This document shows positions 4,367-21,103 of a stretch of 21,103 nucleotides of DNA, piece after piece. The notes under the pieces are model-generated. The model did no database searches. It had not been told where the DNA came from and saw only the letters and a program-made list of their open reading frames with translations. A program made the translations under genes and the position numbers. Numbering within the stretch: the first letter of the stretch is position 1; each line of letters starts with the position of its first letter. The stretch comes from a virus (lineage: Duplodnaviria > Heunggongvirae > Uroviricota > Caudoviricetes), in IMG/VR virus record IMGVR_UViG_2547132281_000013, positions 1 through 21,103 of that record. The stretch is one strand, 5' to 3'.

Positions 4367-4431
4367 AATAAGTCCTCACTATATAAAGATATTCAGTGAT
4401 GAGATAAATAATCAGTTTATTAAGAACGATA

Positions 4432-4794: not shown

Positions 4795-4930
4795 TTTGCT
4801 GCTCCTCATCATATCGACCCTGCAAGGCCGATTAGTTTCTCCACAAAACAGAGAAGAACACCTGCGGTGGCAGCCGCCCGGATGGATTGGGTTATGAGCC
4901 CGTCGTCCGGTGATGCTCTTCTCTGTTTTG

Positions 4931-4977
4931 TAAAAAGAGCGGTACCAGCCGGAAGCAAGGGTACAAACTGGTACCGC
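4931..4977 (-). terminator. tL-like hairpin followed by a T-run on the minus strand
   Basis: 10-bp perfect inverted repeat GCGGTACCAG / CTGGTACCGC (4939-4948 and 4968-4977) with a 19-nt loop. On the minus transcript it is followed immediately by UCUUUUUA. Confidence 0.35.
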
Positions 4978-5194
4978 CAGGACTACACACAGCATAAAGT
5001 TGTGGTGCCGGGTGCCTCCCGGTGCCTGGCGAAGGTTGCACACCAGACGGGTGGGTATCCACAGAAGGTCGACTGTCAGCCTCAACCTTAACCCGCGTGC
5101 GCTGAGCCGCATTCACCACAACGCTAAGGATTCTCTCTGGTTGAAAATACTTAGCTGTTATGTGCCTGCTTTTAGCCACATCAGGCGAGGTGGA

Positions 5195-5248
5195 CCTGGT
5201 TATTCCCCAACAACAAGGATTCGGTTAATCTGGTTATCCCCAACAACG
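5195..5248 (+). repeat. imperfect direct repeat (CTGGTTAT[T]CCCCAACAAC, two copies) just upstream of ORF 5263
   Basis: Copies at about 5195-5215 and 5230-5248, ending 15 bp before the RBS (AAGGAAAAG) of the 144-aa ORF. Confidence 0.4.
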
Positions 5249-5262
5249 CAAAAGGAAAAGAA

Positions 5263-5697
5263 ATGTCCGGTAATATCTACACGCTGTACAAATCCCACTG
5301 TGAAAATGTTGGAAAGTATCGGGGCATTGAAATCAGTGGGGTAGTGTCATCAGTCGAAATAAGCAGAGTGGAATCAAGGGCAACATTACTTACTCTTCTG
5401 GACCTTGTCTTACATGAGCACCGGAAGAAATTCGGCACTCCCTATAATCAGTTGAATGGGAAAAAGGCTCTGGTTCACCTTATTCTGATGAAGCATCACT
5501 GGATGCCAAAACAGATTAATGAGATGAAATTCGATGAACTTCTTCTTTCAATTCAGGATGAACTCACACTTGATAAAATAAGCGTAACCGCCCAGAAATT
5601 TTTAGATTATCGAGACTGGAGATCACAAATTCATCACTTTGATGATTTTGACGAAAATGAATGGGAGCCTAATTTGTCTGCACAATATCTAAAGTAA
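5263..5697 (+). CDS. hypothetical protein, 144 aa; moron-like gene antisense to the leftward early operon
   Basis: ATG with AAGGAAAAG RBS. No transmembrane segment and no recognised domain. Its 3' end overlaps the convergent small ORF at 5669-5875 by 29 bp. Confidence 0.45.
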   Translation: MSGNIYTLYKSHCENVGKYRGIEISGVVSSVEISRVESRATLLTLLDLVLHEHRKKFGTPYNQLNGKKALVHLILMKHHWMPKQINEMKFDELLLSIQDELTLDKISVTAQKFLDYRDWRSQIHHFDDFDENEWEPNLSAQYLK

Positions 5698-5875
5698 CAT
5701 CCTGTGATAAAACCGTGATTTCCTGATCCAGTTTTTTTAAGGAGTCTATTGTTTCCTGTCGATAAGACAGCACTTCACGAAGCTGGTTTATAGCTGCCAG
5801 CTTCTTTGTCATCCACTCGTAAATTTCCTCATTTGTGTATCCGGGCGCGACGATTTTTGGTTCTTTTTTGTGCAT
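5669..5875 (-). CDS. small hypothetical protein, 68 aa; first gene of the leftward (PL-like) operon
   Basis: The ORF track begins at a TTG, but the likely start is the ATG at 5875 (MHKKEPKIV...), which has GAGGAGG 7 nt upstream. Not Arg-rich, so not an obvious N-type antiterminator. Confidence 0.4.
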   Translation of the reverse strand: MHKKEPKIVAPGYTNEEIYEWMTKKLAAINQLREVLSYRQETIDSLKKLDQEITVLSQDVTLDIVQTN

Positions 5876-5935
5876 TTCACACCTCCTCAAGTTATCAGTT
5901 ACTTGTTGATGGGGACCAGATTGTTAAAGAGCTAA

Positions 5936-5956
5936 GCGCCCGAAAGGGCGTTTTTT
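5936..5956 (+). terminator. putative rho-independent terminator on the plus strand
   Basis: GCGCCC-GAAA-GGGCG followed by TTTTTT. Confidence 0.4.
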
Positions 5957-6025
5957 GTTGCTAACGAATCATCCTGGACTTCATATGCCTCAGGCGGCTA
6001 CTTCGTGGGCGTCCTGCCTGTTCTT

Positions 6026-6062
6026 TGTTTCGTTTGGGTACATTATGTATCTCAAGGGTACA
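6026..6062. promoter_or_regulatory. OL-like operator pair
   Basis: TGTTT-N7-GTACA (6026-6042) and TGTAT-N7-GTACA (6046-6062). The GGGTACATT motif occurs twice. Same half-site family as the cI/cro intergenic operators. Confidence 0.45.
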
Positions 6063-6073
6063 TTGTCAAGTAT

Positions 6074-6096
6074 AAAAAAACCTGCCGAAGCAGGTT
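6074..6096 (-). terminator. rho-independent terminator downstream of the repressor gene
   Basis: Minus-strand stem AACCTGC-TTCG-GCAGGTT followed by a run of seven T; lies 13 bp past the cI stop. Confidence 0.5.
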
Positions 6097-6108
6097 CATA
6101 GACATTGA

Positions 6109-6783
6109 TTAGGCTTTGATTTTGTATCTTCTTGGTTTTCCTGAGAAAATCACTGTACCAATTATAGAGCAATTACCGTTGATCTTAATGTAAGGCTCAG
6201 GCCAATTTGGGTTTAACGCTTTGAGATAACGCTGTGTCCCATCTTCTATCAACCTTTTGAAGGTGGTTTCACCTGTATCGTGCATCAATGCAATAACATC
6301 GTCACCGTGGCAGGCAGGTACTTCAGGATCGACAAAAATCATGTCTCCCGGGCGGTACTCATCAATCATTGAATCACCTATCACCCGCAAGATATAAGTC
6401 ATTTCCCCACAGGGTACAGGGCAGGGATACGTTTCTGCTGTGCTCAAATCAACCTCAGAATATCCAACTTCTTTCCATGCTCCGGCCTGTACCCATGATA
6501 TGACAGGGACTAATGTGATTTGTTTATTAGTGATTGAAACATCAGGTTTTTTTGTGATGTTCGTTGTCTGGTGTTCTTGATCGAGCCATCCGATAGGCAG
6601 GTCGAAACATTTTTCGATGTGTCGTGCCATGCTGTCACCGATATTTTTAGTAGCACCATCTCCCATAAACCTGCTGGTCTGGGTTGGCTCGCGATCAATC
6701 ATAGTGGCAAAGGAAGAATTCCCGCCAACACCATCTCTCAGTTTTCTGGCGTTAGACCGCCGGATGTCATGGATTGTTTTCAT
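6109..6783 (-). CDS. cI: CI-like prophage repressor (N-terminal HTH, C-terminal S24 LexA-type autopeptidase)
   Basis: 224 aa. The C-terminal domain carries the S24 catalytic Ser (RVIGDSM) and a downstream Lys (TTFKRL). Divergent from a Cro-like gene across an operator-bearing intergenic region. Confidence 0.85.
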   Translation of the reverse strand: MKTIHDIRRSNARKLRDGVGGNSSFATMIDREPTQTSRFMGDGATKNIGDSMARHIEKCFDLPIGWLDQEHQTTNITKKPDVSITNKQITLVPVISWVQAGAWKEVGYSEVDLSTAETYPCPVPCGEMTYILRVIGDSMIDEYRPGDMIFVDPEVPACHGDDVIALMHDTGETTFKRLIEDGTQRYLKALNPNWPEPYIKINGNCSIIGTVIFSGKPRRYKIKA

Positions 6784-6873
6784 AACGAAATTAAAACCCT
6801 TGTACCGTTAAGGTACAAGTGTCTTGAAGGTTCATTTCAATCATGTAATATGTACACCGGAGGTACATATTGT
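6784..6873. promoter_or_regulatory. divergent immunity control region (OR/PR/PRM-like)
   Basis: Two dyad operators TGTAC-N7-GTACA at 6801-6817 (within the 21-bp palindrome CTTGTACCGTTAAGGTACAAG) and 6851-6867. Candidate rightward promoter: -35 TTGAAG (6824-6829), 16-bp spacer, -10 TAATAT (6846-6851). The second operator overlaps the -10 and the start site. Confidence 0.55.
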
Positions 6874-7074
6874 ATGAAAGCGTATTGGGACTCTTTAACC
6901 AAAGAACAGCAGGGCGAGTTGGCCGGAAAAGTTGGCTCAACACCTGGCTACTTACGGCTGGTTTTCAATGGCTATAAAAAAGCCAGTTTTGTGCTGGCTA
7001 AAAAACTTGAGCAATGCACGTCAGGTGCAATTACGAAATCTGACTTAAGACCGGATATCTATCCGAAAGATTAG
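6874..7074 (+). CDS. cro: Cro-like HTH regulator
   Basis: 66 aa from the ATG at 6874, with GGAGG 10 nt upstream. The longer ORF-track frame (6571-) runs antisense into cI and is rejected. Confidence 0.6.
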   Translation: MKAYWDSLTKEQQGELAGKVGSTPGYLRLVFNGYKKASFVLAKKLEQCTSGAITKSDLRPDIYPKD

Positions 7075-7105
7075 CAGAACACCTTCAATTTTTAACCACA
7101 GAACG

Positions 7106-7672
7106 ATGAGGCTAACCGTGGGTAAGCATCACTGGAAAATAGAAAAACAGCCTGAGTGGTACGTGAAAGCTGTCAGAAAAACTATCGCAGCGTTGCCGGG
7201 GGGTTACGCTGAAGCAGCTGACTGGCTGGATGTAACAGAGAACGCATTATTTAACCGCCTTCGTGCCGATGGCGATCAGATTTTCCCGCTGGGATGGGCA
7301 ATGATTTTGCAACGTGCTGGTGGAACTCACTTCATTGCTGACGCTGTGGCGCAGTCTGCAAATGGCGTCTTTGTGTCTCTTCCTGATGTCGAGGATGTGG
7401 ACAACGCCGATATCAACCAACGCCTGCTGGAGGTCATTGAACAGATCGGCAGTTATTCAAAACAGATTCGTTCAGCAATTGAAGACGGTGTAGTGGAACC
7501 GCATGAGAAGACAGCAATTAACGACGAGCTGTACCTCTCAATTTCGAAGCTGCAGGAGCATGCAGCACTGGTCTACAAAATTTTTAGTACATTCAAGAGA
7601 AGTAATGACGCCCGCGAGTGTGCAGCTCCGGGCGCCGTGGCGTGTCGTGACTGTGGAGAAACTAACGCATGA
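7106..7672 (+). CDS. YmfL-like putative early regulator (CII-position gene)
   Basis: 188 aa, immediately downstream of cro. Length and position match e14 ymfL from memory. An alternative GTG start at 7121 has a better SD. Confidence 0.45.
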
Positions 7673-8007
7673 ACAGTTTAACAACACACTACCGTCGCTC
7701 GCAACTGATTGCGCTTCCTGTACCGGGTGGAAAAGCGAAGGTGGAGTATTGCTATGCAGTAAATGTACCAGGTGGCAGGGTAATTGTAACCCACAGCTTT
7801 GCAGAGTGGGCTGTGGGTGATTTTAACCGGCAAAAGGAGACAGTCCTTTGCGACAAGTTAACCGCTGGTTCAAAGATCACTACGGAGTACCCGTCAGAGT
7901 CATTCGTTGGGAGCCGGAAACACAACGGGTTATCTACCTCCGCGAAGGCTATGAGCATGAATGCTTCAGTCCGCTCGAACAGTTTCGTCGTAAATTCAGG
8001 GAAATAG
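7669..8007 (+). CDS. YmfM-like hypothetical protein, 112 aa
   Basis: ATGA start/stop coupling with the preceding gene. The 3' half overlaps an alternative-frame ORF that has a stronger RBS (next feature). Confidence 0.35.
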
Positions 8008-8027
8008 AGGTCGGTCATGAGCACTAA
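7848..8027 (+). CDS. small DUF4222-like protein, 59 aa, TTG start, in an alternative frame
   Basis: AAGGAG at 7833-7838, 9 nt upstream of TTG 7848. Product [58 protein letters not shown] is protein-like and recalled as resembling DUF4222 prophage proteins. Confidence 0.4.
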
Positions 8028-8292
8028 ATTAACCGGCTATGTATGGGATGGTTGCGCTGCATCAGGCATGAAGTTATCCAGCGTGGCAATTATGGCACGC
8101 CTGGCTGATTTCAGTAATGACGAAGGTGTGTGCTGGCCATCAATTGAAACCATTGCCCGTCAGATTGGCGCGGGGATGAGTACCGTCAGAACGGCTATCG
8201 CACGGCTGGAAGCAGAAGGCTGGTTAACGCGTAAGGCGCGTCGCCAGGGTAGAGACAACAAAAGGAGCCTGGGATGTACAGCAGACTGTTAA
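8017..8292 (+). pseudogene. N-terminal fragment of a phage replication-initiation (O-like, HTH) protein
   Basis: The first ~77 aa ([78 protein letters not shown]) look like a replication-protein N-terminus. The frame then runs into unrelated sequence and stops at 91 aa, where full-length proteins are much longer. Confidence 0.5.
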
Positions 8293-8492
8293 TCATCTAC
8301 CTGATGACGATGTTGACCGTGAGTTGCGCGAAAACTTTACCCGCAAAACCTGAAGTAACGGACACGGCCTGTGACTGGGTAAGAATCATCTACCTCACAG
8401 GTCAGGACATTGAAGTGCTGGATAAGCTTACGAAGCGGGATATTCTGGCACATAACAAAGCAGTACAGCGCAACTGTATTAGCCAGTTATGA
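8274..8492 (+). CDS. small putative exported protein or lipoprotein (possibly Rz1/o-spanin-like)
   Basis: AAGGAG 7 nt upstream of the ATG. Hydrophobic N-terminus ending in a near-lipobox (LTVSC). Position is upstream of the packaging genes. Confidence 0.3.
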   Translation: MYSRLLIIYLMTMLTVSCAKTLPAKPEVTDTACDWVRIIYLTGQDIEVLDKLTKRDILAHNKAVQRNCISQL

Positions 8493-8534
8493 GGCAAACG
8501 AGATTGCGGGCAATTATCGCCCGCAATAAAGTTA

Positions 8535-8798
8535 TCAATTATCTCCTTTAAAGGAGTCGTATTCACCCCAATCAGCAAACCCAATCGGTCTTTTAGGGGT
8601 CTCTAAGCATAAGCGTTTTTTTCGGATTAGCAGGACATTTATTTGAGATACATGCTGAACAAGTTCTACAGGACTGCCATCCTCCAGAGTACCAATGAAA
8701 GAAATTAATGATGGATTCCAGTAGCTTATGTCTGTGAAATGAAATTCAATGTTTTTACCAAAGCTAGCTAGTTGTCCTCCTACCTCATACTCTTCTTC
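8535..8798 (-). pseudogene. 3' portion of a small ORF interrupted by the IS66-family element
   Basis: Continues the frame of 11506-11631 once the IS and one copy of the target duplication are removed (...EEEYEVGGQLASFGKNIEFHF...GEYDSFKGDN). Confidence 0.5.
8791..8798. repeat. 8-bp target-site duplication TCTTCTTC (left copy)
   Basis: Identical 8-mer abuts both ends of the IS66-family element. Confidence 0.8.
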
Positions 8799-8828
8799 GT
8801 AAGCGACTCGTCAGAACCGTATTGATAT

Positions 8829-10400
8829 TTACTGAGAGCTCAGATCAACTTTCCAGGGCAACAGATCGCGTACCCGGTTTGCCGGCCAGTCCTGGATATG
8901 TTCAATGACGTAACGCAGCCACTTTTCTGGCTCCACATTGTTCAGACGGCATGTGCCGATCAGCGAGTACAACACCGCCGCATGTTCACCACCGCTGTCG
9001 GAACCCGCGAACATCCAGTTTTTCCGGCCTACGGCCACTCCCCGTAAGGCGTTCTCTGCGATGTTGTTGTCGATTTCCACCCAGCCATTACTGCAGTACA
9101 CGTTCAGTGCATCCCACTGTTTCAGCAGGTATGCGAACGCTTTTGCCGTATCTGAGTGACGCGACAGTGTTTTCATCTGTTGCTGTATCCAGTCATACAG
9201 TGACTGCATCAGTGGCGCGGCTCTGGCTTTTCTTGCCGCCAGACGCTGTTCTGCTGAACAGCCCCGGACCTCTGCCTCGATGGCATACAGTTCACCGATA
9301 CGCTGCAGGGCTTCCGTGGTGATGTCGGTGGGCGCTCTTGCATGCACATCGTGGATTTTTCTCCGGGCATGAGCCATACACGCGGCTTCCGTTATTCTGC
9401 CGGATTCGTATAACGCCCGGTAACCACCGTAAGCATCGGCCTGAAGCACACCGCTGTAACCGGCCAGGTGATTTTGTGGATGGATACCTTTCCGGTCCGG
9501 ACTGTACGCGAACCAGACCGCCGGGGGCATCTGTGAACCGGCGTTACGGTCATCACGGACGTAGACCCACAGCCGGGCTGTCCGGGTTTTACCGCTGCCC
9601 GGCTCCTGGACCGGGACGGGGATATCATCAGCATGGACTTTACCGGGCATCAGCACATACTGGCGCAGGACGTCATACAGCGGCTCCAGCAGTTCAGCAA
9701 CAGCACCTGTCCAGCGCCCCAGTGTGGCACGGCTCAGCTCCACTCCCTGACGACGGTATATTTCTGACTGGCGGTATAACGGCAGATGGTCTGCATATTT
9801 CCCGGTGACAACATGGGCCAGAAGCCCCGCTCCGGCATAACTGCGTGCAATGGGTTTTGAAGGTACTGGTGCCTGCACGATATGGTCGCACCGGCAACAG
9901 GCCTGTTTCGGACGTTGTGTTTCGATAACCTTAAAGGCGCTGCTGATAAGCTCCAGTTGCTCTGACACATCACATCCCAGAGAACTGAGTTCACCACCAC
10001 AGGCAGGACAGCATTCCTCTTCCGGCCGGATAACCCGGGTTTCACGGGGAAGTGAGGCCGGTAACGGTTTACGGGCTGAAGACTGGCGCAGGGCGGATGG
10101 CAGTACCGGGTCATATTGCTCACCCAGCGTTTCCGCCATTTCTTCCTGAAGTGCGCTGATTCGCTCCTGTGCTTCCTGTATCTGCCGTTCGGTTTTTGCA
10201 CGAAGTTTTTCTGAGCTTTTACCGAACTGCATGCGCTGCAGTTTCGCAACCAGCGCCTTCAGCCGGTTGATTTCGGAAGCATAAGCCGCCACCCGCTGTG
10301 AGAGCAGGCGGTTGTATTCAGCCATCTGGCGGATGGTGTCCTGTTGCGTCTGCAACAGTGCCCGCAGGCGGGCGTTCTCATGAGCAAGTGAGGTGTCCAT
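8829..10400 (-). CDS. tnpC: IS66-family transposase TnpC
   Basis: 523 aa with an N-terminal coiled-coil/leucine-zipper region, a CxxC...C zinc-finger-like motif (CCPACGGEL...) and a DDE-type core. Confidence 0.85.
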
Positions 10401-10419
10401 ATCCTCACTTTACAACGGG

Positions 10420-10767
10420 TTATATGCGGATTCCAGCGCGTTCCGTTCGTTTCGGGTGCTTCCAGTTGATACCTTCAAGAAGCATGGATAACTGAGCCGG
10501 AGTAAGGTGCACCTTGCCGTCACGGGTGACTGGCCAGACGAAGCGGCCCCGCTCCAGGCGTTTGGTGAAGAGGCACAGTCCGTCACTGTCAGCCCACAAC
10601 ACTTTTATCTGGTCACCCCGGCGTCCGCGGAAGATGAACAGGTGTCCGGAGAACGGGTCATCCTTCAGGACGTTCTGAACTTTTGATGCCAGGCCGTTAA
10701 AGCCATTTCGCATATCGGTGATACCTGCAACCAGCCAGATACGCGAACCTGCAGGGAGAGATATCAT
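10420..10767 (-). CDS. tnpB: IS66-family accessory protein TnpB
   Basis: 115 aa, typical IS66 Orf2 (LWADSDGLCLFTKRLERGRFVWP), translationally coupled to tnpA. Confidence 0.8.
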   Translation of the reverse strand: MISLPAGSRIWLVAGITDMRNGFNGLASKVQNVLKDDPFSGHLFIFRGRRGDQIKVLWADSDGLCLFTKRLERGRFVWPVTRDGKVHLTPAQLSMLLEGINWKHPKRTERAGIRI

Positions 10768-11444
10768 CAGTGGCTGCTCCCTTTTATTTCGCGGATAAGT
10801 GTCTGTAATAACGCCGGCGTCAGTTTACCTTTAAGCCTGAGAGTTCCGGCCGGCAGAACCAGCTCACAACACAGACTGTCGGACGGTGTATTTATCTGCT
10901 CTGGTTCCTGTGCGGGGGCCGGGATTTTATTATCCGGCTCCGGCGTTAACGTCACGGGAAGCAGTGCCGGCATATTTTTTCCGGAAGGCAGCAGGCCACC
11001 TTTCCGGTATTGATGGCGCCAGTTGAAGAGCAGGTTATCGTTGATTCCGTTTTCCCGGGCGATCTGCGCCACACAGGCTCCGGGCTGCAGTGACTGCTCC
11101 ACTAAGGCGATTTTAAACTCATAAGGGAAGTTGGGCCGCCGGGGACGTTTTTTTACCACGGGGGCTTCGGATATAACGGTGCTTTCAGGACGTACGACTG
11201 GTACCGTGGAAAATTGTCCGTAAAGGCAGGCATCAAGTTCCTGCTCCGACATGCCTGCGGGCAAAGGCCACGAAAGGCCAGCTCTCCGAAAGCGCACGAA
11301 CATACTACAAACTGTTGATTTTGGTACACCCAGGCGACGCCCGGCCACAACCCGGGGTAAATGTTCTTCAAAGTGAAGACGTAAAGCTTCAGTGATCCAG
11401 GTCCGGTGTTTCATACGATAGTGTCCATTAAAAATGATGGACAT
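10767..11444 (-). CDS. tnpA: IS66-family accessory protein TnpA (HTH), with an N-terminal extension
   Basis: The C-terminal part carries the IS66 OrfA HTH (PRRPNFPYEFKIALVEQSLQPGACVAQIARENGINDNLLFNWRHQYRKG). Start is uncertain between the ATGs at 11444 and 11414. Confidence 0.7.
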   Translation of the reverse strand: MSIIFNGHYRMKHRTWITEALRLHFEEHLPRVVAGRRLGVPKSTVCSMFVRFRRAGLSWPLPAGMSEQELDACLYGQFSTVPVVRPESTVISEAPVVKKRPRRPNFPYEFKIALVEQSLQPGACVAQIARENGINDNLLFNWRHQYRKGGLLPSGKNMPALLPVTLTPEPDNKIPAPAQEPEQINTPSDSLCCELVLPAGTLRLKGKLTPALLQTLIREIKGSSH

Positions 11445-11497
11445 TATTTTTGTAGAGCCGGAGGAAACAGACCAGACGGTTTAAATGAGCCGGTTAC

Positions 11498-11505
11498 TCT
11501 TCTTC
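11498..11505. repeat. 8-bp target-site duplication TCTTCTTC (right copy)
   Basis: Identical to 8791-8798. Confidence 0.8.
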
Positions 11506-11631
11506 AAGTTCACGGTGAAAATCATTTATCCAGCATATAAGGCGTCTATGAAATTCATTTGCAAGATTGTAGTCCTTTGGAACATATGGCTGTGAGTATT
11601 TGAGGAAATCATTCATGTAGTTATTTGTCAT
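11506..11631 (-). pseudogene. 5' portion of the small ORF interrupted by the IS66-family element
   Basis: ATG at 11631 with AAGGA about 8 nt upstream (MTNNYMNDFLKYSQPYVPKDYNLANEFHRRLICWINDFHRELEE...). The frame runs into the target duplication and the IS end. Confidence 0.5.
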
Positions 11632-11729
11632 CAGGGCGTCCTTTACGAGCATAACCATTGTTACTTAACGGATTGAAACGCTATTAAATAACATGGTTTC
11701 TATCATAATTTCTATCCGGAGTTTTCCAT

Positions 11730-12080
11730 ATGCCGCCACGAATCCCAAAAGCCTGCCGTGTTCGCGGCTGTCGTTCTACCACTACAGATCCGTCAGGCTA
11801 CTGCGAAAATCATAAAGGTGAGGGCTGGAAATCCTACAAGCCAGGTCAATCACGGCAGCAGCGCGGATATGGAACAAAGTGGGAAGTCATCCGGGAGCGG
11901 ATACTAAAGCGCGACAAAGGGTTATGTCAGAACCATCTTCGGCAGGGAGTTGTGAAGCAAGCGTCCTGCGTGGATCACCTCAAGGCGAAGGCTCACGGCG
12001 GCACTGATGAAGACAGCAACCTTGAGAGTCTGTGCTGGTCGTGTCACGCAGTGAAGACCGCGCGTGAGCGGTTCAGGTGA
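11730..12080 (+). CDS. phage-associated HNH endonuclease
   Basis: 116 aa with the HNH signature (CVDHLKAKAHGGTDEDSNLESLCWSCH) and N-terminal Cys pairs. GGAG 8 nt upstream. Sits next to the terminase genes, as is common in cos-type packaging modules. Confidence 0.8.
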   Translation: MPPRIPKACRVRGCRSTTTDPSGYCENHKGEGWKSYKPGQSRQQRGYGTKWEVIRERILKRDKGLCQNHLRQGVVKQASCVDHLKAKAHGGTDEDSNLESLCWSCHAVKTARERFR

Positions 12081-12197
12081 GAATTGATGTCATCATCAGC
12101 CAGGGGAGGGGGAGGTCGAATCTTTGCAACCGCGCGCCTTCCGGACTGCTCGCCCCATCGTTTTTTTATACCCGCGAAAAATGAAATTTAACCAGGA

Positions 12198-12701
12198 GTG
12201 CCGCATATGGCTGGAACGGCGGGGCGTTCCGGGCGTCGCCCCAAGCCAACGGCGCGCAAGGCGCTGGCCGGAAACCCCGGCAAGCGAGCCCTGAATAAAG
12301 ATGAACCTGTTTTTACGCCCATCAAAGGTGTTGAGCCACCGGAGTGGTTCGCTGAAGAAGATCTCCCTCTCGCCACGATCATGTGGCAACTGACAACTAA
12401 AGAACTCTGCGGTCAGGGCCTGCTGTGCGTGACTGACCTCGCAGTGCTTGAGCGGTGGTGTGTGGCCTATGAGTTCTGGCGACGTGCCGTGAAAAATATT
12501 GCCAGACAGGGCAACACCATCACCGGTGCAATGGGCGGTATGGTCAAAAATCCGGAGCTGACCGCCAAAAAAGAACAGGAGTCCGAGATGAGCAGTACGG
12601 GGGCAATGCTCGGACTCGACCCCAGCAGCCGCCAGCGTCTAATTGGCCTGGCGGGGAAGAAGAAAGCCACTAACCCGTTTCTGAAAATCATCGAATCATG
12701 A
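12198..12701 (+). CDS. terminase small subunit (P27-family-like)
   Basis: [21 protein letters not shown] motif. The likely start is the ATG at 12207, which has AGGAG 8 nt upstream; the ORF-track start at 12198 is a GTG. Stop overlaps the terL start (ATGA). Confidence 0.75.
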
Positions 12702-13561
12702 GCCGGAAATCTTACCCCAACGTAAATGCTGCCAATCAGTATGCCCGTGATGTCGTGCGCGGAAAGATTGTGGCCTGCCAGTTTGTGATTCAGGCCTGCC
12801 AGCGGCATCTTGATGACCTGATGGCGGAAAAAAGTAAGTCGTTTCGTTACCGCTTCGACAAGGACCTGGCTGAACGGGCCGCTAAATTTATTCAGCTGTT
12901 GCCGCACACCAAGGGTGAGTGGGCATTTAAGAGGATGCCCATCACGCTGGAGCTGTGGCAGCTCTTTGTGATCTGCTGCGCGTTTGGCTGGGTCAATAAA
13001 GGCTCCCGGCTGCGCCGCTTCCGTGAGGTGTATACCGAAATCCCCCGTAAGAACGGCAAATCGGCAATCTCTGCCGGTGTCGCCCTGTATTGTTTTGCCT
13101 GTGATAACGAGTTCGGCGCGGAAGTGTATTCCGGTGCCACGACGGAGAAACAGGCATGGGAAGTCTTTCGTCCGGCAAGACTGATGTGTAAACGCACACC
13201 CATGCTAACGGAAGCGTTCGGGATTGAGGTTAACGCCTCAAACATGAACCGTCCGGAGGATGGTGCGCGTTTTGAACCGCTGATCGGTAACCCCGGTGAT
13301 GGTTCATCACCCCACTGTGCGGTGGTGGATGAATATCACGAGCACGCCACCGATGCGCTTTACACCACGATGCTTACCGGGATGGGGGCGCGACGTCAGC
13401 CACTGATGTGGGCCATTACTACTGCCGGGTACAACATTGAGGGGCCGTGCTACGACAAGCGGCGGGAAGTTATCGAGATGCTCAACGGGTCGGTACCTGG
13501 CCTGCGGTACAGAATGACCGTTACGGCTCCCGACTGTGGCTGCTTCAGCGCAGCAAACTGA
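12698..13561 (+). pseudogene. terminase large subunit, N-terminal ATPase portion only (truncated)
   Basis: Walker A-like GKS (PRKNGKSA) and Walker B-like VVDEYHE are present. The frame stops at 287 aa after a non-conserved tail, and no nuclease domain follows. Confidence 0.65.
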
Positions 13562-13770
13562 CCAATCAGCTGGTGCAGACGGTAAGGGGGTATATCCGCG
13601 AATGCCTGCAATGGATGATTGATGACGGCGTGGTGTCCCGTATTGATCTGGATATCCGCCGCACCGGGATTAATGAACTGGGTAACAGTATCACTCTCTG
13701 GCGTCGTGACGGACCGGTAATGATTTCTTTTGATGATCTGTGGAGTGCGATAACGCATGGCGGACAGTGA
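13562..13770 (+). pseudogene. start-less C-terminal remnant of the gene preceding baseplate J (possibly gpW/gp25-like)
   Basis: Protein-like frame (...IRECLQWMIDDGVVSRIDLDIRRTGINELGNSITLWRRDGPVMISFDDLW...) ending in overlap with the baseplate J start. No credible start or RBS after the terL stop. Confidence 0.25.
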
Positions 13771-14815
13771 ATTTCAGCGCCCGACGCTGGCAGAAAATAT
13801 CAGTATGCTCCGTAACGATTTATTCGCCAGGCTGGACGTCAGCGACACGCTCCGGCGCATGGATGAAGACGTGCGGGCAAAGGTGTATGCGGCGGCGCTG
13901 CATACGGTTTACGGTTACATCGATTATCTGGCAATGAACATGCTGCCTGACCTGTGCGATGAGTCCTGGCTGGCGCGACATGCTGCGATGAAACGGTGTC
14001 CGCGCAAGGGAGCCACGGCTGCCAGTGGGTATATGCGCTGGGAAGGTGTCAGCGATGGCCTGAAGGTGACCGCCGGGAGTGTTATTCAGCGCGATGACCT
14101 GGTGCAGTACACGACAACTGACGATGCAACCAGCTCCGGTGGTGTCCTGCGCGTGCCGATCGCCTGCTCAAGTGCAGGTGCGGTCGGTAACGCTGACGAC
14201 GGTACGGCATTAATCCTGGTCACGCCGGTGAATGGTCTGCCGTCTTCCGGTGTGGCTGACACCCTGACAGGCGGATTTGATACTGAAGAGCTGGAAACGT
14301 GGCGCGCCCGCGTCATTGAGCGGTATTACTGGACGCCGCAGGGCGGGGCTGACGGGGACTATGTTGTCTGGGCTAAAGAAGTGCCCGGCATTACCCGCGC
14401 ATGGACATACCGACACTGGATGGGAACGGGGACTGTCGGTGTGATGATTGCCAGCAGCGACCTGATTAACCCCATTCCGGAAGAATCAACGGAAACGGCG
14501 GCAAGACAACACATTGAGCCACTGGCCCCGGTGGCAGGCTCTGATTTGTATGTATTCAGGCCGGTGGCGCACAAAGTGGATTTTCATATCCGCGTGACTC
14601 CGGACACACCGGAAATACGGGATGCCATCACCGCGGAGTTGCGTTCATTCCTGCTGCGTGATGGTTATCCGCAGGGAGAGCTGAAGGTATCGCGTATCAG
14701 TGAAGCGATTTCCGGTGCGAACGGGGAATACAGCCATCAGTTGCTTGCTCCGGCGGACAATATCTCCATTGCAAAAAATGAACTGGCGGTTCTGGGGACG
14801 ATTTCATGGACGTGA
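13757..14815 (+). CDS. baseplate assembly protein J-like (P2 gpJ family)
   Basis: 352 aa. Position immediately upstream of a gpI-like and tail-fibre gene with overlapping start/stop, and overall similarity to the e14 jayE-type protein. Confidence 0.75.
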
Positions 14816-15390
14816 CAAACGATGATTACATCCGTCTGTTGTCGGCACTGTTGCCCCCTGGTCCGGCGTGGTCAGCCAGCGATCCGGCGATTGCCGGTGC
14901 GGCACCGTCATTAACCCGTGCTCATCAGCGTGCGGATGCCCTGATGCGGGAGCTGGATCCGCGCACCACCACCGAACTGATAAACCGCTGGGAGCGTCTG
15001 TGCGGCCTGCCGGATGAATGTATTCCGGCAGGGACGCAGACCCTTCGCCAGCGTCAGCAACGGCTGGATGCGAAGGTTAACCTGGCGGGCGGCATCAATG
15101 AGGATTTTTACCTTGCGCAGCTTGCTGCCCTGGGCAGACCAGATGCCACCATCACGCGATACGACAAAAGCACGTTCACCTGCTCATCGGCCTGTACTGA
15201 CGCGGTGAATGCGCCGGAATGGCGGTATTACTGGCAGGTCAATATGCCAGCTGCCACCAACACCACCTGGATGACATGTGGCGATCCCTGCGATTCCGCA
15301 CTGCGTATCTGGGGGGACACCGTTATCGAGTGCGTGCTTAACAAACTCTGCCCGTCGCATACCTACGTAATTTTTAAATATCCGGAGTAA
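14806..15390 (+). CDS. P2 gpI-like tail protein (YmfQ-like)
   Basis: 194 aa, overlapping the gpJ-like stop. Conserved N-terminal LLPPGPAW motif. Length matches e14 YmfQ from memory. Confidence 0.7.
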
Positions 15391-15393
15391 TCC

Positions 15394-16320
15394 ATGCATC
15401 GTATAGACACGAAAACCGCGCAAAAGGATAAGTTCGGCGCGGGTAAGAACGGTTTTACCCGTGGTAACCCCCAGACAGGCACGCCTGCCACCGATCTGGA
15501 TGATGACTACTTTGACATGTTGCAGGAAGAGCTCTGCAGCGTGGTGGAGGCATCCGGTGCCAGCCTGGAGAAGGGGCGGCATGACCAGCTGCTTACCGCG
15601 CTTCGTGCGCTGCTGTTAAGTCGCAAAAATCCGTTTGGCGATATCAAATCGGACGGCACGGTGAAAACGGCTCTTCAAAACCTTGGTTTGGGAGATACAA
15701 GCGGATACGTGGGACGCCGGCTGAGTACCTGGGCTTTCGCGTCATCAGGTACGTATACCCCATCACTAGAAACAAAACGGATCAGGGTCACAATAACGGG
15801 CGGCGGTGGCGGAGGGGGGGGCTGCCAGGCTATATCCAGTAACGAAACGTTTTTCGGTGCTGGCGGTGGGGCCGGAGGGACAGTAATCACCATACTGACC
15901 CCGACACAGAATAGTTATCCTGTCACTATCGGCGCAGGTGGGGCCGGCGGCGTTGGTGCGACGAACGGCCTCAAGGGCGGTGATAGCTCGTTCGGATCGG
16001 TAATAGCCCCTGGTGGTGAAGGCGGCGGAAAATCAGGAGTCACAAACACAAACGGCGGTAACGGAGGCGTACCGAATATTGGCGATATCCGCATCACTGG
16101 TGGAGATGGAGGCGACGGTCAGTCCGGGAATATCGGCGTCAGCGGTGAAGGCGGTGCATCGTACTGGGGAGGCGGTGGACGCGCAGGCTCTGGCGGTGGC
16201 GTTAGAGGCAGGGCATTTGGTTCAGGCGGAGGTGGTGCATACGATGCAGGTTATAGCGGAACCAGTATGACGGGCGGGAAAGGTGCTGCTGGGGTTTGTA
16301 TTATCGAGGAGTTTGCATAA
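15394..16320 (+). CDS. side tail fibre protein (constant N-terminus plus Gly-rich variable C-terminus)
   Basis: N-terminus [47 protein letters not shown]... is the conserved Mu/e14-type fibre N-terminal region. The C-terminus is made of GGxGG repeats. The gene crosses the invertible-segment boundary at 15683-15684. Confidence 0.8.
15671..15696. other. Din-family (gix/hix/pix-like) recombination site, left boundary of the invertible segment
   Basis: CTCTTCAAAACC-TT-GGTTTGGGAGAT is an imperfect 26-bp dyad resembling hix/gix, and is an inverted copy of the site at 17503-17528. Confidence 0.6.
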
Positions 16321-16730
16321 TGAATGCGTCATATGCAGTTATTGAAAATGGGATGGTTGTGAATGTCATTGTCTGGGATGGCGAGGATGAATTCACTGTG
16401 CCGGATAATCTGCAGCTCATTAATATTTCTGATATCAGTGAGCAGCCCGGAATCGGCTGGGCGTATTCAGACGGGATATTTACTGCGCCGCTCCCTCCGG
16501 AACGTTCTCATGATGAACTGGTAGCTGACGCTGAACAGAAAAAACAGTCGCTGATAGACGCAGCAATGGCCAATATCAGCGTGATTCAGTTAAAGCTGCA
16601 GGCCGGGCGCAAACTGACGCAAGAAGAAACTACCAGACTTAACGTTGTGCTGGATTACATTGACGCGGTGACAGCAACTGATACCAGCACCGCGCCAGAT
16701 GTCATCTGGCCTGAACTGCCGGAGGCGTAG
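16320..16730 (+). CDS. tfa: tail fibre assembly protein
   Basis: Start ATG overlaps the stf stop (TAATG), with GAGGAG 9 nt upstream. C-terminal ...LDYIDAVTATDTSTAPDVIWPELP is the conserved tail-fibre-assembly motif. Confidence 0.8.
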   Translation: MNASYAVIENGMVVNVIVWDGEDEFTVPDNLQLINISDISEQPGIGWAYSDGIFTAPLPPERSHDELVADAEQKKQSLIDAAMANISVIQLKLQAGRKLTQEETTRLNVVLDYIDAVTATDTSTAPDVIWPELPEA

Positions 16731-17142
16731 GCCATTCAATATCTGGCGCACTGGAAGTATCGACCAGCTCCAGTGCGTCCAGATAATCCAGCCACAAATT
16801 ATATTGCGCCAGTTCCTCACCTTTCAGACGACCAATAGCCGCTTTACCAGCCCATTGTTTACTGTTCATATAATCGTTGGCCTGATTAATCAATTGCTGC
16901 TTTTCCAGTTCGGCTGCAGCAATCTGTTCCTCATGTGTTGGTGGTGGAATTTCAGACCATGCAGGAAAACCATTTTCTCCAGCGATACGGATTTTTCCTT
17001 TCGGCGGTAATCCGGAAAACTCAATATACGCTTGCTCATCAACTTCAACAGCATCATCTGGCCATGAGTCAGCTTGAGTGTAATCCTCTTTCATTTCCAG
17101 TGGATAGAAAGAGTTTGTAGTCGCGGAATATATGTAATTCAT
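16702..17142 (-). CDS. tfa: tail fibre assembly protein, alternative copy
   Basis: 146 aa. C-terminal ...LWLDYLDALELVDTSSAPDIEWPTPP. Its 3' end converges on and overlaps the other tfa. Confidence 0.8.
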   Translation of the reverse strand: MNYIYSATTNSFYPLEMKEDYTQADSWPDDAVEVDEQAYIEFSGLPPKGKIRIAGENGFPAWSEIPPPTHEEQIAAAELEKQQLINQANDYMNSKQWAGKAAIGRLKGEELAQYNLWLDYLDALELVDTSSAPDIEWPTPPAVQAR

Positions 17143-17163
17143 TTTTCACTCCATATAGCTAAA

Positions 17164-17514
17164 TTAACAGCCTAACGCTAAAAATGAAGCGCCGAGACCT
17201 GGAGTACTGGCTCTGGATATAAATTTAACCGGGTCGGAACTAAAAGCTGCGCAGGCAATATAACCAACAGACCCGCTATCTGGTGTGTAGTCTTGTGAGA
17301 CCAAAACACGCAGACATCGGTTTGGAAATGCAATCGGAAAATGGGTTACCACATCCTGTGCAATGCCTGGTGCGCCGATTGAGCCCCACTGAAGAATAAA
17401 ACCAGATGGTAATTTTTGATATCCAGTACCTGAAACAGAAAGCGTGAAGCTACCCATATCAGGTATCTGATTCGTCCCTGTCCCCACATTCCTTTTTGCC
17501 GCTTCTCCCAAACC
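17164..17514 (-). CDS. alternative tail-fibre C-terminal segment, start-less; expressed only after inversion
   Basis: The frame begins exactly at the crossover core (GGT TTG GGA GAA = GLGE...), matching the ...QNLGLGD... junction in stf. The first 14 ORF-track codons (17515-17556) lie outside the segment and are not coding. Confidence 0.6.
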
Positions 17515-17528
17515 AACGTTTATGAAAA
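17503..17528. other. Din-family recombination site, right boundary of the invertible segment
   Basis: TTCTCCCAAACC-AA-CGTTTATGAAAA, about 55 bp upstream of the pin remnant. Shares GGTTTGGGAGA with the left site in inverted orientation. Confidence 0.6.
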
Positions 17529-17582
17529 TGCAGAAATAACAAGCAAATGGCATCATTCCTGCTTTTGTCAGGGAGATCTATC

Positions 17583-17711
17583 ATGCTTATTGGTTATGTA
17601 CGCGTATCAACAAATGACCAGAATACCGATCTACAACGCAATGCGCTGAACTGTGCAGGGTGTGAGCTGATTTTTGAAGACAAGATAAGCGGTACAAAGT
17701 CCGAGACCTAG
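17583..17711 (+). pseudogene. pin: DNA invertase (Pin/Gin/Hin serine recombinase) remnant, N-terminal 42 codons
   Basis: MLIGYVRVSTNDQNTDLQRNALNCAGCELIFEDKISGTKSE matches the conserved N-terminus of Din invertases, including the catalytic Ser in VRVSTNDQ. A stop follows codon 42 and downstream sequence is unrelated. Confidence 0.8.
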
Positions 17712-17748
17712 GGCTGACACTGCTGTTCTTGATGCAAATTAAAGGATT

Positions 17749-17776
17749 TAATAGTGAGTAGCGGCCTTACTAATGT
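17749..17776. terminator. perfect 12-bp stem / 4-nt loop hairpin; candidate bidirectional terminator
   Basis: TAGCGGCCTTAC-TAAT-GTAAGGCCGCTA with AT-rich flanks on both sides. Lies 31 bp past the stop of the minus-strand DUF262/DUF1524 gene. Confidence 0.5.
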
Positions 17777-17806
17777 AAGGCCGCTATAATCATTTTATTA
17801 ATTGCA

Positions 17807-19696
17807 TTAATCGTGTTTTGGCCATACTTTCAATGCAATTTCCCCCAACTTTTTACCCCGCTCCAGGATTTCATCCTCATCCCATTTATCCTTAACTATA
17901 AGTGGAATGTTCAGTCGTAGATTGGTGTGGACGATGAGAGCATCACGTTTTTTCAGAAATACAGCATTCTGAACAGAACGGTTTACGCTAAGGTTAAGCA
18001 AAGTTAGATTTCCCAACGTAGCTATCGCTTGTTGCCGTTTCCTTACCAGTAGCTGTTCAGGGGTAAGATCGGTTCCAGACAGAACAATTTGGTTCAATAC
18101 CGTAGCATCTGAATTTGTCACCATATGACCATTTTCGAGAGGCCAACAGGAAAACCAACTTTGAGGCATAAGATGATCGATATCGAGATTGGAAAGATTT
18201 GGACCATCAGGCTTCTCTGTCTTCACTTGGCGACAAAGTTCTCTTTCAAGTTCCGTTAACATTGAGCGCATTTTCGGTGCGTCGAGCCTGCCAGGATAAA
18301 GTGGAGCATTGATGCAAGCATTGAGAAATTCTGAGTCACCAGGCCAACGTGAGGCTTCGCCATTTAAGCTATTGAGGATATTACGTAACTCAACACTGGA
18401 AATTTCCGTTTTAGACAAGTGCCGCAATACATTCATAAATACATTGTTGTAATTCTTTGGCGTCAGGCCACATACGGCTCTTCGTACTACGTAGGAGACA
18501 AGATCATTATACATGGCTGCTTTCTCATCATCAGCGATGTTAGCTATCGAAATGAACAAAGCAAGCGGATAAAGTGTCGTCACATCATAGTCTGCGATGC
18601 GATATCCAAAGTGTGAGATGGGGGTTGTGCCAAAACCATCAACCAATTCTTTATATTGTGATGCATATTGTTTGAGGCGCTTTACTTGCAGATCTGCTCG
18701 TTGTGAAGACAAGTCCTTACTTACATAATCACGATACTCATTGTAAAGGCGAGACAGATCAATTTCACGCTGCCTTTCTGATTGCAATGTCGCATGTACT
18801 AGCCACTCCATGCGTGGTTTATTAATACGTCCACGGCGTTGCTTTTCCGACCAGTATTTATCTTCAAAGCTCTTCCACTCATTTTCATATAATTCAATAG
18901 CATTAATATTTTCATGCTCAGCGCACATAAAGATATAGTTGCGAATAAGATCCGTGGCATGAAGTTCCGCCCCTCGCCCATTTAATGTTTCAAAAATTAT
19001 TTGGGCATCATCTTCAGCTTCGAGAAATATGCTTACCAGTTTCAGATCTGTTAAGACAGCCTCAATTAGAGCTACAGCATTTTCTTGTGGTGAGTGGTTT
19101 TCTATTTTAATCCATTTTATAAAGGCTTCAGTAAAAAAACATAATGCTTCTAGTGATGGCGGGTGATTAAAATGCTTACGCAACGTACCATGCTGCGTGA
19201 AACTATCAGAGAATACGTCCCGGAGATCGTCAATATTTTCAACATTAAAACTTTGAATAAAATGAGTTTGATCCCGAAAAGTTGGCCATAGTTTGAAGCG
19301 TTCTACTTCTTTATTTCGCATTGTGTCTTCGTTTGAGTTTTTCAGGCAAGGCGAAATGAGAGCCTCTAAGCTGAAAAGATCCGTAGCACGTAATGCTAAT
19401 CGGATGGATGCCAGAACATATTGAAGAGTGGTCAATCGTTGCTGACCATCAATAATATGTATGGAATCTACACCTAATAATCCTTTTTTTGATTGAGGTT
19501 CCAGTACAACCGCACCAAGGAAATGGGGAGTTGGTTTTGTACCCGAGAGCCGGGATTGTGCTTTCTCTAGGATATCCTCCAGTAGAGCTGACCATTGGTC
19601 TTGCTGAGTCCATACATAGGCACGTTGATAGAATGGAACACAGTATTGTCGGCGGTCTTGAAAAAGTTGTTGGACAGTTAGCGTCTCGGATTTCAT
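17807..19696 (-). CDS. DUF262/DUF1524 protein, GmrSD-like candidate type IV (modification-dependent) restriction endonuclease
   Basis: N-terminal DUF262 hallmark ...SIHIIDGQQRLTTLQYVLASI... (DGQQR). C-terminal DUF1524-type His-Me finger motifs ...LDIDHLMPQSW... and ...LGNLTLLNLSVNRSVQN.... The likely start is the ATG at 19696 (MKSETLTVQQLF...) with AGGT upstream; the maximal ORF extends to 19756 but has no RBS. Confidence 0.75.
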   Translation of the reverse strand: MKSETLTVQQLFQDRRQYCVPFYQRAYVWTQQDQWSALLEDILEKAQSRLSGTKPTPHFLGAVVLEPQSKKGLLGVDSIHIIDGQQRLTTLQYVLASIRLALRATDLFSLEALISPCLKNSNEDTMRNKEVERFKLWPTFRDQTHFIQSFNVENIDDLRDVFSDSFTQHGTLRKHFNHPPSLEALCFFTEAFIKWIKIENHSPQENAVALIEAVLTDLKLVSIFLEAEDDAQIIFETLNGRGAELHATDLIRNYIFMCAEHENINAIELYENEWKSFEDKYWSEKQRRGRINKPRMEWLVHATLQSERQREIDLSRLYNEYRDYVSKDLSSQRADLQVKRLKQYASQYKELVDGFGTTPISHFGYRIADYDVTTLYPLALFISIANIADDEKAAMYNDLVSYVVRRAVCGLTPKNYNNVFMNVLRHLSKTEISSVELRNILNSLNGEASRWPGDSEFLNACINAPLYPGRLDAPKMRSMLTELERELCRQVKTEKPDGPNLSNLDIDHLMPQSWFSCWPLENGHMVTNSDATVLNQIVLSGTDLTPEQLLVRKRQQAIATLGNLTLLNLSVNRSVQNAVFLKKRDALIVHTNLRLNIPLIVKDKWDEDEILERGKKLGEIALKVWPKHD

Positions 19697-19874
19697 GGTA
19701 TACCTGTAAGCGACATTGTACAAAAGTGAGGAGTTAATCTGATTTAGAACAATCATTTTATTTTGCTATGATACAACGTATTTGTTACCGGTTAAGCAAA
19801 AAACGCGTCTGAACGCTGACGTTTTAGGGCTTTACTGGTTATTCTTTCTTATCTCTTCATCATTGGATTTGCCC

Positions 19875-20780
19875 CTATATTTCCAGACATCTGTTATCAC
19901 TTAACCCATTACAAGCCCGCTGCCGCAGATATTCCCGTGGCGAGCGATAACCCAGCGCACTATGCGGATGCCATTCGTTATAATGCTCGAACGCCTCTGC
20001 AAGGTTCTTTGCTGCCGTTAACCCGTCTGGTTTGGGCATGATACTGATGTAGTCACGCTTTATCGTTTTCACGAAGCTCTCTGCTATTCCGTTACTCTCC
20101 GGACTCCGCACCGCCGTGTTCTTCGGTTCAAGTCCCAACATCCGGGCGAACTGGCGTGTTTCATTAGCCCGGTAGCATGAACCATTATCCGTCAGCCACT
20201 CCACTGGAGACGACGGAAGATCGTTGCCGAAGCGGCGTTCCACCGCTCCCAGCATGACGTCCTGTACTGTTTCACTGTTGAAGCCGCCGGTAGTGACCGC
20301 CCAGTGCAGTGCCTCACGATCACAGCAGTCCAGCGCGAACGTGACACGCAGTCTCTCTCCGTTATCACAGCAGAACTCGAACCCGTCAGAGCACCATCGC
20401 TGATTGCTTTCTTTCACGGCCACTCTGCCTGTATGTGCCCGTTTCGATGGCGGTACAGCAGGTTTTCGCTCAAGCAACAGCGCATTCTGGCGCATGATCC
20501 GGTAAACACGTTTGGCATTGATCGCAGGCATACCATCAAGTTCTGCCTGTCTGCGAAGCAGCGCCCATACCCGACGATAACCATACGTGGGCAGCTCTCC
20601 GATAACATGGTGTATACGGAGAAGCACATCCGTATCATCAGTGTGACGACTGCGGCGGCCATCCATCCAGTCATCGGTTCGTCTGAGAATGACGTGCAAC
20701 TGCGCACGCGACACCCGGAGACAACGGCTGACTAAGCTTACTCCCCATCCCCGGGCAATAAGGGCGCGTGCGCTATCCAC
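19875..20780 (-). CDS. insD: IS2 transposase InsD (OrfB, DDE integrase domain)
   Basis: 301 aa, GTG-initiated frame [28 protein letters not shown]... recalled as IS2 InsD. In vivo it is expressed mainly as an InsCD fusion by -1 frameshifting. Confidence 0.85.
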
Positions 20781-21103
20781 TTTTTTGCCCGTCCATATTC
20801 AACGGCTTCTTTGAGGAGTTCATTTTCCATCGTTTTCTTGCCGAGCAGGCGCTGGAGTTCTTTAATCTGCTTCATGGCGGCAGCAAGTTCAGAGGCAGGA
20901 ACAACCTGTTCTCCGGCGGCGACAGCAGTAAGACTTCCTTCCTGGTATTGCTTACGCCAGAGAAATAACTGGCTGGCTGCTACACCATGTTGCCGGGCAA
21001 CGAGGGAGACCGTCATCCCCGGTTCAAAGCTCTGCTGAACAATTGCGATCTTTTCCTGTGTGGTACGCCGTCTGCGTTTCTCCGGCCCTAAGACATCAAT
21101 CAT
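20738..21103 (-). CDS. insC: IS2 InsC (OrfA, HTH)
   Basis: 121 aa, [56 protein letters not shown].... Confidence 0.85.
20780..20786 (-). promoter_or_regulatory. programmed -1 ribosomal frameshift heptamer A AAA AAG (insC to insD)
   Basis: Minus-strand GCA AAA AAG TGG in the insC frame; a -1 slip reads AAA AAA GTG GAT AGC..., which is the insD frame. Confidence 0.7.

Follow-up and report, generated by a model that had tools for sequence, protein, structure and literature searches.

The DNA analysed here, hereafter the window, is a stretch of 21,103 nucleotides (nt) (IMG/VR record IMGVR_UViG_2547132281_000013, positions 1 to 21,103). It carries a prophage element that is located in E. coli between two tRNA-Pro genes, adjoining yejM, and in which the packaging genes run directly into baseplate genes. 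This region is very probably the scar of one 14.3-kb deletion in an e14/SfV-like temperate phage at the tRNA-Pro gene by yejM. It joined terL nt 800 out of frame to gp46 nt 150 through the tetranucleotide TACC, and a separate deletion took out the block from replication to lysis. The insertion sequences (IS) ISCro1 and IS2 entered after both deletions, followed by further erosion in sister lineages. The deletion itself is likely to have been an illegitimate break-and-join at microhomology, and neither homologous nor mediated by Int or Pin. The case adds one well-mapped passage from temperate phage to cryptic remnant with its order of events resolved, which is ordinary and unsurprising decay; only the re-use of breakpoints at palindromic TA sites is of specialist interest.

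The junction between terL and gp46

The gene order of the window is based on an open reading frame (ORF) scan and Pfam, which place all packaging and baseplate genes on the + strand. Positions 11500-14900 were used as a megablast query against 5,426 complete E. coli genomes. Prophages with full-length terL matched its left 2 kb at 99.8% identity, and the right part aligned with baseplate regions. As intact reference we used the prophage at icd in E. coli AMSHJX01 (L001; NZ_CP030939.1, 2264-2300 kb); other intact e14/SfV-like E. coli prophages are L016-L035. The packaging and head genes of L001 are arranged as HNH, terS, terL (577 amino acids, aa), ymfR, portal, protease, capsid, connectors and terminator, and its tail genes as sheath, tube, assembly protein, tape measure, DNA-circularisation protein, three baseplate genes, GP46, J, YmfQ and fibre. 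The ancestor of the window element had the usual order HNH-terS-terL-ymfR-portal-protease-capsid-connectors-sheath-tube-tape measure-baseplate (gp44/45/46/J/YmfQ)-tail fibre.

Alignment with an intact HNH-terS-terL phage, proposed in an earlier note on the bare sequence, gives one junction and maps a single deletion of 14,283 bp on L001, from 21998 to 36278. By blastn, window 11495-13497 corresponds to L001 19996-21998 at 99.75% identity, and window 13494-15695 to L001 36278-38480 at 97.3% identity. The collinear blocks between window and L001 are 94-100% identical with their order kept, and identity to intact relatives is 97-99.8% over the DNA that remains. The junction lies at 13494-13497, where a three-way alignment and the raw sequence show the 4-bp microhomology TACC shared by terL (GGTCGGTACC|CAACG) and gp46 (GGGGGATACC|TGGCC). 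The missing stretch runs from terL nt 801 to gp46 nt 149. It held the TerL nuclease domain, YmfR, portal, protease, capsid and connectors on the head side, and sheath, tube, tape measure and three baseplate genes on the tail side. L001 retains this 14.3-kb stretch, together with a 7.5-kb stretch that the window also lacks, and has neither ISCro1 nor IS2.

These comparisons uphold most of what the earlier note had claimed. It had seen no portal, protease, capsid, tube or sheath gene between packaging and baseplate, and the 14,283-bp deletion relative to L001 bears this out. Virion structural genes are not found elsewhere in the element either: a tblastn search with the 29 L001 products or fragments removed by the two deletions gave no match anywhere in the window. 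TerL is not rescued by a single frameshift, as the window lacks 310 of its codons and 13 kb of the genes that follow. The interpretation as a cryptic prophage is thereby supported, with no restorable TerL and no structural genes elsewhere in the window.

To the left of the junction, the HNH endonuclease (11730-12080, +; PF01844) and the terminase small subunit (12207-12701, +; PF05119, P27/Terminase_4 family) are intact, as had been noted. HNH is identical to L001 WP_001135100.1 over 116/116 aa and TerS to its L001 counterpart over 164/164 aa. The program-made ORF of TerS spans 12198-12701 with a GTG at 12198, and the probable start is the ATG at 12207. The exact TerS protein is present in thousands of contigs, mostly intact prophages. 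HNH lies directly 5' of the P27-family TerS, and the TerL start overlaps the TerS stop. This arrangement of HNH, Terminase_4 TerS and TerL is shared with modules of the HK97/phi-P27 type, from which the window differs by lacking the TerL nuclease domain. Inspection of the HNH-terS intergenic region (12081-12206) showed no obvious GNTANC-like cos palindrome.

The terL fragment (12698-13497, +; PF03354) comprises codons 1-266 plus 2 nt of 577 codons, and blastn homology to L001 ends at 13497. The stump ORF continues to 13561 and encodes 287 aa; over aa 1-267 it matches the 577-aa L001 TerL without a difference. Its only domain is TerL_ATPase (PF03354, aa 87-256), with a Walker A-like motif PRKNGKS at 115-121 and a Walker B motif AVVDE at 208-212. 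TerL_nuclease (PF20441), which intact relatives carry, had no Pfam match in the stump. The large subunit is thus cut after its ATPase motifs, as had been described, although homology stops at aa 266/267 and not at 287. As the nuclease domain is absent, the terminase module is not complete, and from its domain content it should not be able to act as a full terminase in cutting or translocating DNA.

The frames of TerL and GP46 differ across the junction. For this reason the TerL stump ends in 20 foreign codons with a stop at 13561, and the GP46 remnant has no start. Frame arithmetic and translation show that the foreign tail (13498-13561, +) is gp46 DNA read in the wrong frame. The remnant itself (13495-13770, +; aa 51-141 of 141) is the 3' part of a Mu gp46-like baseplate gene that matches positions 31-100/101 of the PF07409 profile, and 91/92 of its positions, stop included, are identical to aa 51-141 of L001 gp46. 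The program lists the start-less ORF as 13447-13770, of which 13495-13770 is GP46 coding sequence. A start-less remnant overlapping the start of baseplate J had been noticed before and now has an identity, GP46 (PF07409). A gap between the TerL stop and J, in turn, does not exist, since the whole interval is GP46 coding sequence. For annotation, both the 287-aa "terminase" and ORF 13447-13770 should be treated as pseudogene fragments. The next gene, baseplate J/gp47 (13757-14815, +), is full length at 352 aa, matches PF04865 over the whole profile and is identical to L001 at 347/353 positions.

Decay of the element and its relatives

The truncated replication gene reported earlier is explained by the second deletion. 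This event of 7,530 bp has its junction, AGGGTA, at 8246-8251 and joins replication codon 78 to DNA just upstream of a DUF6173 gene. By blastn against L001, junction alignment and translation, the stump (8017-8292, +) consists of 78/313 codons, retained at 8017-8251, and a 13-codon foreign tail. The deletion removed the replication C-terminus, PerC, LexA-like, RusA, KilA-N, DUF968, Q, holins and lysozyme. What survives in the element is an integrase (400 aa, with an Arm-DNA-binding domain), early-left genes and repressor/cro/ymfL/ymfM on the left, and HNH-TerS-TerL', J-YmfQ-tail fibre with an invertible segment and a GmrSD cargo gene on the right.

Both IS elements are more recent than the deletions. 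ISCro1, of the IS66 family (8799-11497, -; ORFs 8829-10400, 10420-10767 and 10767-11444), interrupts the DUF6173 gene and is flanked by an 8-bp target duplication, TCTTCTTC, at 8791-8798 and 11498-11505. Its assignment is based on IS66 Pfam domains in L012 and on the name ISCro1 in L004, and it is absent from L013-L015. IS2 occupies the right end of the element (19875-21103, -; orfB 19875-20780, orfA 20738-21103); it is annotated in L003-L005 and absent from L013 and L015. Since L013 and L015 have both deletion junctions and neither ISCro1 nor IS2, the deletions predate the insertions. In E. coli EC130 (L004), ISCro1 sits elsewhere in the same prophage, so the two copies represent independent insertions.

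Sister alleles record further decay. L014 (Logan SRR31093878) has lost another 595-600 bp, from HNH codon 4 into terS, which leaves it without most of HNH and the terS 5' end. The junction is at its positions 9502-9506, with the microhomology GCCAC, and window 11740-12334 is missing. This deletion indicates that the packaging genes are still eroding and are not conserved. Other strains (L003-L005) carry the same prophage, with ends 100% identical and between the same two tRNA-Pro genes by yejM, with different deletions. In L003, HNH nt 140 is joined to the tape measure gene and the DNA-circularisation gene to the ymfQ/fibre boundary; in L004 and L005, HNH nt 140 is joined to the 3' end of the fibre gene, upstream of tfa. 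These alleles lost other blocks than the window did, J-YmfQ among them. At least four decay states of one ancestral prophage are thus present at the tRNA-Pro/yejM locus, a series provided by nature in which the order of decay can be studied. Deletions from terL or portal into gp46 or J, each with breakpoints of its own, also occur in L002, L006-L011 and K-12 e14. In L002 (E. coli PCP06173, 14001-21405), terL'-'gp46-J-YmfQ is followed by an inverted second packaging module (portal', ymfR, full terL, terS, HNH), a layout that points to an inversion or to two related prophages left as a tandem remnant.

The K-12 element e14 (at icd; ymfN = oweE/aaaE, beeE, jayE, ymfQ, stfP/stfE, pinE, mcrA) belongs to the same phage family as the window element, as judged from the ymfK/T/L/M/Q homologues annotated in sister alleles and in e14 (L159). 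The two share the order ymfK/T/L/M, packaging module, J, YmfQ, invertible fibre segment, pin and type IV restriction cargo. They also share a mode of decay, with a replication stump fused to late DNA and head and tail genes lost up to the baseplate. The earlier note had proposed e14-like decay with different breakpoints. This is correct for the packaging/baseplate junction, which in e14 (beeE/jayE) is different and also of the TA type (GTGGTA|TATGCG). It fails for the replication gene, where the oweE/aaaE breakpoint of e14 coincides with that of the window within 1-3 nt (CCAGGGT|A). On this sequence comparison, the kinship with e14 is closer than that note thought. The differences are nonetheless clear. 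While e14 is integrated in icd with IntE/XisE, the window element sits at tRNA-Pro/yejM with a different integrase. The former kept the 3' half of terL together with ymfR and a portal stump that runs into a truncated J, and lost HNH, terS and the terL 5' half, whereas the latter kept HNH, terS and the terL 5' half and lost ymfR and portal. In the window J is intact and pin is a stump, the reverse of e14; the cargo is GmrSD instead of McrA, and ISCro1 and IS2 are inserted.

We also considered what else the region might represent. An assembly artefact, or a TerL that is merely frameshifted, deserves next to no credence. The exact junction does occur in 0 of the 5,426 complete E. coli genomes, which would fit an artefact. 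Yet the index of public assemblies lists the exact 287-aa TerL stump in 58 blocks, a 32-mer spanning the junction is also present in L012-L015, and L012 (AELE01000017.1, GCA_000166615.2) is 99.99% identical to window 2698-21103. Assemblies of independent samples, in NCBI as well as in Logan, have the identical junction with differing flanks, namely with or without ISCro1/IS2 and with or without the extra HNH-terS deletion. In addition, 14,283 bp of the reference are absent and not shifted. A functional satellite or hijacker is a more elaborate proposal, in which HNH, TerS and the TerL ATPase fragment would redirect the packaging of a helper and J-YmfQ-fibre would retarget its tails. HNH and TerS are indeed intact and match the proteins of functional phages exactly, the element has an integrase and a repressor, and many independent remnants retain HNH-terS at one flank and YmfQ-fibre at the opposite one. 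This pattern of retention is biased, however, as the query itself covered both sides. At its boundaries the element has pseudogene stumps (terL', 'gp46, rep', pin') that line up with the genes of an intact prophage, and it has no compact satellite gene set. The L014 lineage is already without HNH and the terS 5' end, and L003-L005 are without J-YmfQ-fibre or terS-terL. Replication and lysis genes are gone, as is the antiterminator Q needed for late transcription. A satellite of this kind is accordingly very improbable.

More specific identities were rejected on similar grounds. An inducible, particle-forming prophage is excluded by the absence, in tblastn, of portal, protease, capsid, connectors, sheath, tube, tape measure, lysis genes and late antiterminator. 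A tailocin would need sheath, tube, tape measure, gp44/45-like baseplate genes and lysis genes, for which tblastn of the window likewise found nothing. A phage-inducible chromosomal island (PICI), capsid-forming PICI (cf-PICI) or P4-like satellite does not agree with a replication gene cut at codon 78, out-of-frame stumps and collinearity with an intact prophage. Deletion scarring thus stands as the preferred explanation: the element would package no DNA and build no heads or tails, and hence would be a defective prophage. Decay has apparently been neutral, stepwise and lineage-specific, starting from one ancestral insertion, and HNH, TerS, J, YmfQ and the fibre genes probably remain intact only through the youth of the deletion. 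No observation argues against the deletion as such. The defect is presumed from gene content, and helper-dependent mobilisation could in principle take place, with a putative cos region between HNH and terS cut in trans. Furthermore, the deletion is too recent for the ratio of nonsynonymous to synonymous substitution rates (dN/dS) to separate neutrality from selection on the retained genes.

Recurrent breakpoints at TA sites

Deletion junctions were gathered from the alleles in hand, 80 metagenome loci, e14 and 80 IMG/VR loci. IS insertion boundaries and mosaic module swaps were left out of the tally; the former served as an internal check and showed the expected target duplications and no TA bias. 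A scan of genome contigs with TerS found relatives in other Enterobacterales to be too diverged for nucleotide mapping of junctions. Its sole yield was the boundary of a cassette that has or lacks a Dam gene, and this was kept out of the deletion count. The first aligned junctions mostly had TA within the microhomology, with flanks such as GGTACC, GGTAACC and GATATC. TA is the rarest dinucleotide in the phage, at 4.3%. Of simulated random deletions, 2.7% have it inside a microhomology of 2 bp, a share that climbs to 16% at 6 bp.

Against this expectation, TA lies in the microhomology of 19/30 mapped deletion junctions, compared with 1.76 expected (P=2e-18). Among junctions found after the hypothesis was formed, 10/18 are of this type (P=9e-10), and in the last batch, whose events were not chosen for the site, 2/6. 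The TA-type junctions map to window 13494-13497 and 8246-8251, to L001 11929, 20376, 21998, 23533, 33305, 33708, 36814 and 38163, and to L159 8904 and 10639. The flanks are also biased. At the 27 unique TA-type parental sites, G stands two bases before TA in 21 (background 0.31) and C two bases after it in 20 (background 0.30); GNTANC is present in 14/27 (background 0.098, P=4e-8). The extended consensus resembles CGG(W)TA(W)CCG. As the bias is found on the lost side as well, it is not explained by microhomology.

Individual sites are used repeatedly. The 21-nt left flank of the terL site (CTCAACGG(G/T)TCGGTA|CC) occurs ~141 times in the collected loci, of which ~130 read on as terL and the remaining 11 are junctions to five partners. 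These partners of terL:800 are gp46:150 (the window lineage), gp46:309, the head-closure region, L001:33708 and L001:38163. Other re-used breakpoints, with two or three partners each, are portal:408 (e14, L011, L222), L001:33305 (L003, L057, L168) and L001:38163 (L003, L302, L307), together with HNH:140, J:274 and the replication-gene site rep:235. About 0.26 coincident breakpoint pairs would be expected by chance. We infer that the terL breakpoint is non-random and marks a hot spot with a GGTACC/G-R-T-A-Y-C-type palindrome and at least five partners, and we regard the hot-spot signature as real.

Neither recombinase of the phages appears to account for the breaks. Deletion by Pin at secondary sites was rejected, as pix (TTCTCCCAAACC-AA-GGTTT...) has an AA/TT core with inner ACC/GGT arms, while at the breakpoints the core is TA, the inner arms are GG/CC and conservation ends after ~4 nt. 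Integrase-mediated deletion was rejected because related elements differ in integrase and attachment site (icd, thrW, proL). We incline, by a small degree, to a sequence-directed break-and-join at CGG(W)TA(W)CCG / G-R-T-A-Y-C palindromes with strand exchange at the central TA. It would account for the TA enrichment, for the G/C flanks on both the kept and the lost side and for the re-use of breakpoints. The activity could be that of a type IIA topoisomerase cleavage complex, of the phage RusA resolvase or of some other nuclease or recombinase.

The Ikeda laboratory is said to have put forward a model of illegitimate recombination associated with topoisomerase II (gyrase). Recombination of this kind resembles the present junctions in its short or absent junction homology and in a symmetric sequence preference at both parental sites. 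In addition, the GGTA.. and ..TACC arms of the breakpoints resemble the inner arms (GGTAT / ATACC) of the gyrase consensus core CGGCGGTAT-N4-ATACCGCCG (133-bp consensus, PMC6379681 supplement). A TA step within GTAC is also reported at the centre of a gyrase G-segment (PMC13284261). The correspondence is incomplete, however. The arms of the breakpoints abut at a single TA and are not 8 bp apart, and an unweighted match of breakpoints +-10 nt to the gyrase core is not significant (P ~0.11-0.15). Type IIA determinants are -4G/+8C, -2A/+6T and -1T/+5A, equivalent to GNAT|N4|ATNC with a 4-bp stagger (PMC10117906). This differs from GRTAYC, the parental sites are without the 8-bp spacing, and -1T/+5A and -2A/+6T are not reproduced at the breakpoints. 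RusA, encoded by these phages, is a lead only: it cuts 5' of CC (PMC1636454), a preference that fits TA|CC junctions, but does so at junction crossovers and not in plain duplex DNA.

Other observations count against directed breakage in general. Some 40% of junctions fall outside the TA type, data behind some of the P values also served to derive the motif, and the Pin sites (AAACC-TT-GGTTT), with their AA/TT core, do not look like this motif. Part of the re-use may reflect a second deletion from an older junction, although this would still mean a hot site. A broader claim is that most of the large deletions that made e14/SfV-like remnants, including terL-gp46 and beeE/jayE of e14, come from an undescribed process directed by CGG(W)TA(W)CCG-like palindromes, with exchange at the central TA and a reusable hybrid site. 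We put this forward tentatively and with some doubt. If true, the decay of these prophages would follow a small network of preferred sites instead of random breakpoints, and prophage domestication would be partly deterministic in a prophage family that is very common in E. coli. The activity behind the breaks, be it a host topoisomerase, a phage resolvase or another, would then be testable by polymerase chain reaction (PCR) across junctions.

Tail fibre, cargo and other genes of the element

Downstream of J, a YmfQ/Mu Gp48-like baseplate gene (14806-15390, +; PF10076) is full length at 194 aa, and the exact protein is found in many intact prophages. It is followed by a tail-fibre module (15394-17556; Gly_rich_2, two Caudo_TAP and Gp53-like_C domains by Pfam) that has the Pin-type invertible segment of the family, with 26-bp crossover sites and opposed tfa/fibre cassettes. 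The module comprises a glycine-rich fibre gene (15394-16320, +), tfa (16296-16730, +), an inverted tfa (16702-17142, -) and an alternative fibre C-terminus (17164-17556, -). Its Pin crossover sites lie inverted at 15678-15695 and 17504-17521 (inverted repeat I2, AAACC-TT-GGTTTGGGAGA). The serine invertase gene pin is a stump of 42 codons (17583-17711, +), in agreement with the earlier note; PF00239 (Resolvase) is found on the 42-aa product in L012/L013, and a partial recombinase is annotated in L003-L005. With pin truncated, the fibre segment can invert only with Pin supplied in trans.

Directly after the pin stump lies a 629-aa type IV restriction gene of the GmrSD type (17807-19756, -; DUF262 + DUF1524, PF03235 + PF07510), recorded as a DUF262 protein in L003-L005. 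It takes the slot that mcrA has after pinE in e14, so that e14/SfV-like phages seem to accommodate type IV restriction genes as cargo at their right end.

In the left part, a 283-aa ORF at window 1-852 (+) lies outside the integrase at the left end, in DNA of unusually low G+C (0.34 over the first kb). It has no Pfam hit on record and could be a moron or defence gene. A yfdR-like 5'-deoxynucleotidase gene (2879-3441, -) is split into two ORFs. In identical sister alleles yfdR is annotated as frameshifted, along with two small hypothetical genes (window ~2312-2529 and 4809-5119), which indicates that point pseudogenisation affects the element too. An intact S24 repressor is encoded at 6109-6783 (-). 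Near it, after ymfL, a 112-aa ORF (7669-8007, +) has the length and position of ymfM, the cell-division inhibitor of e14.

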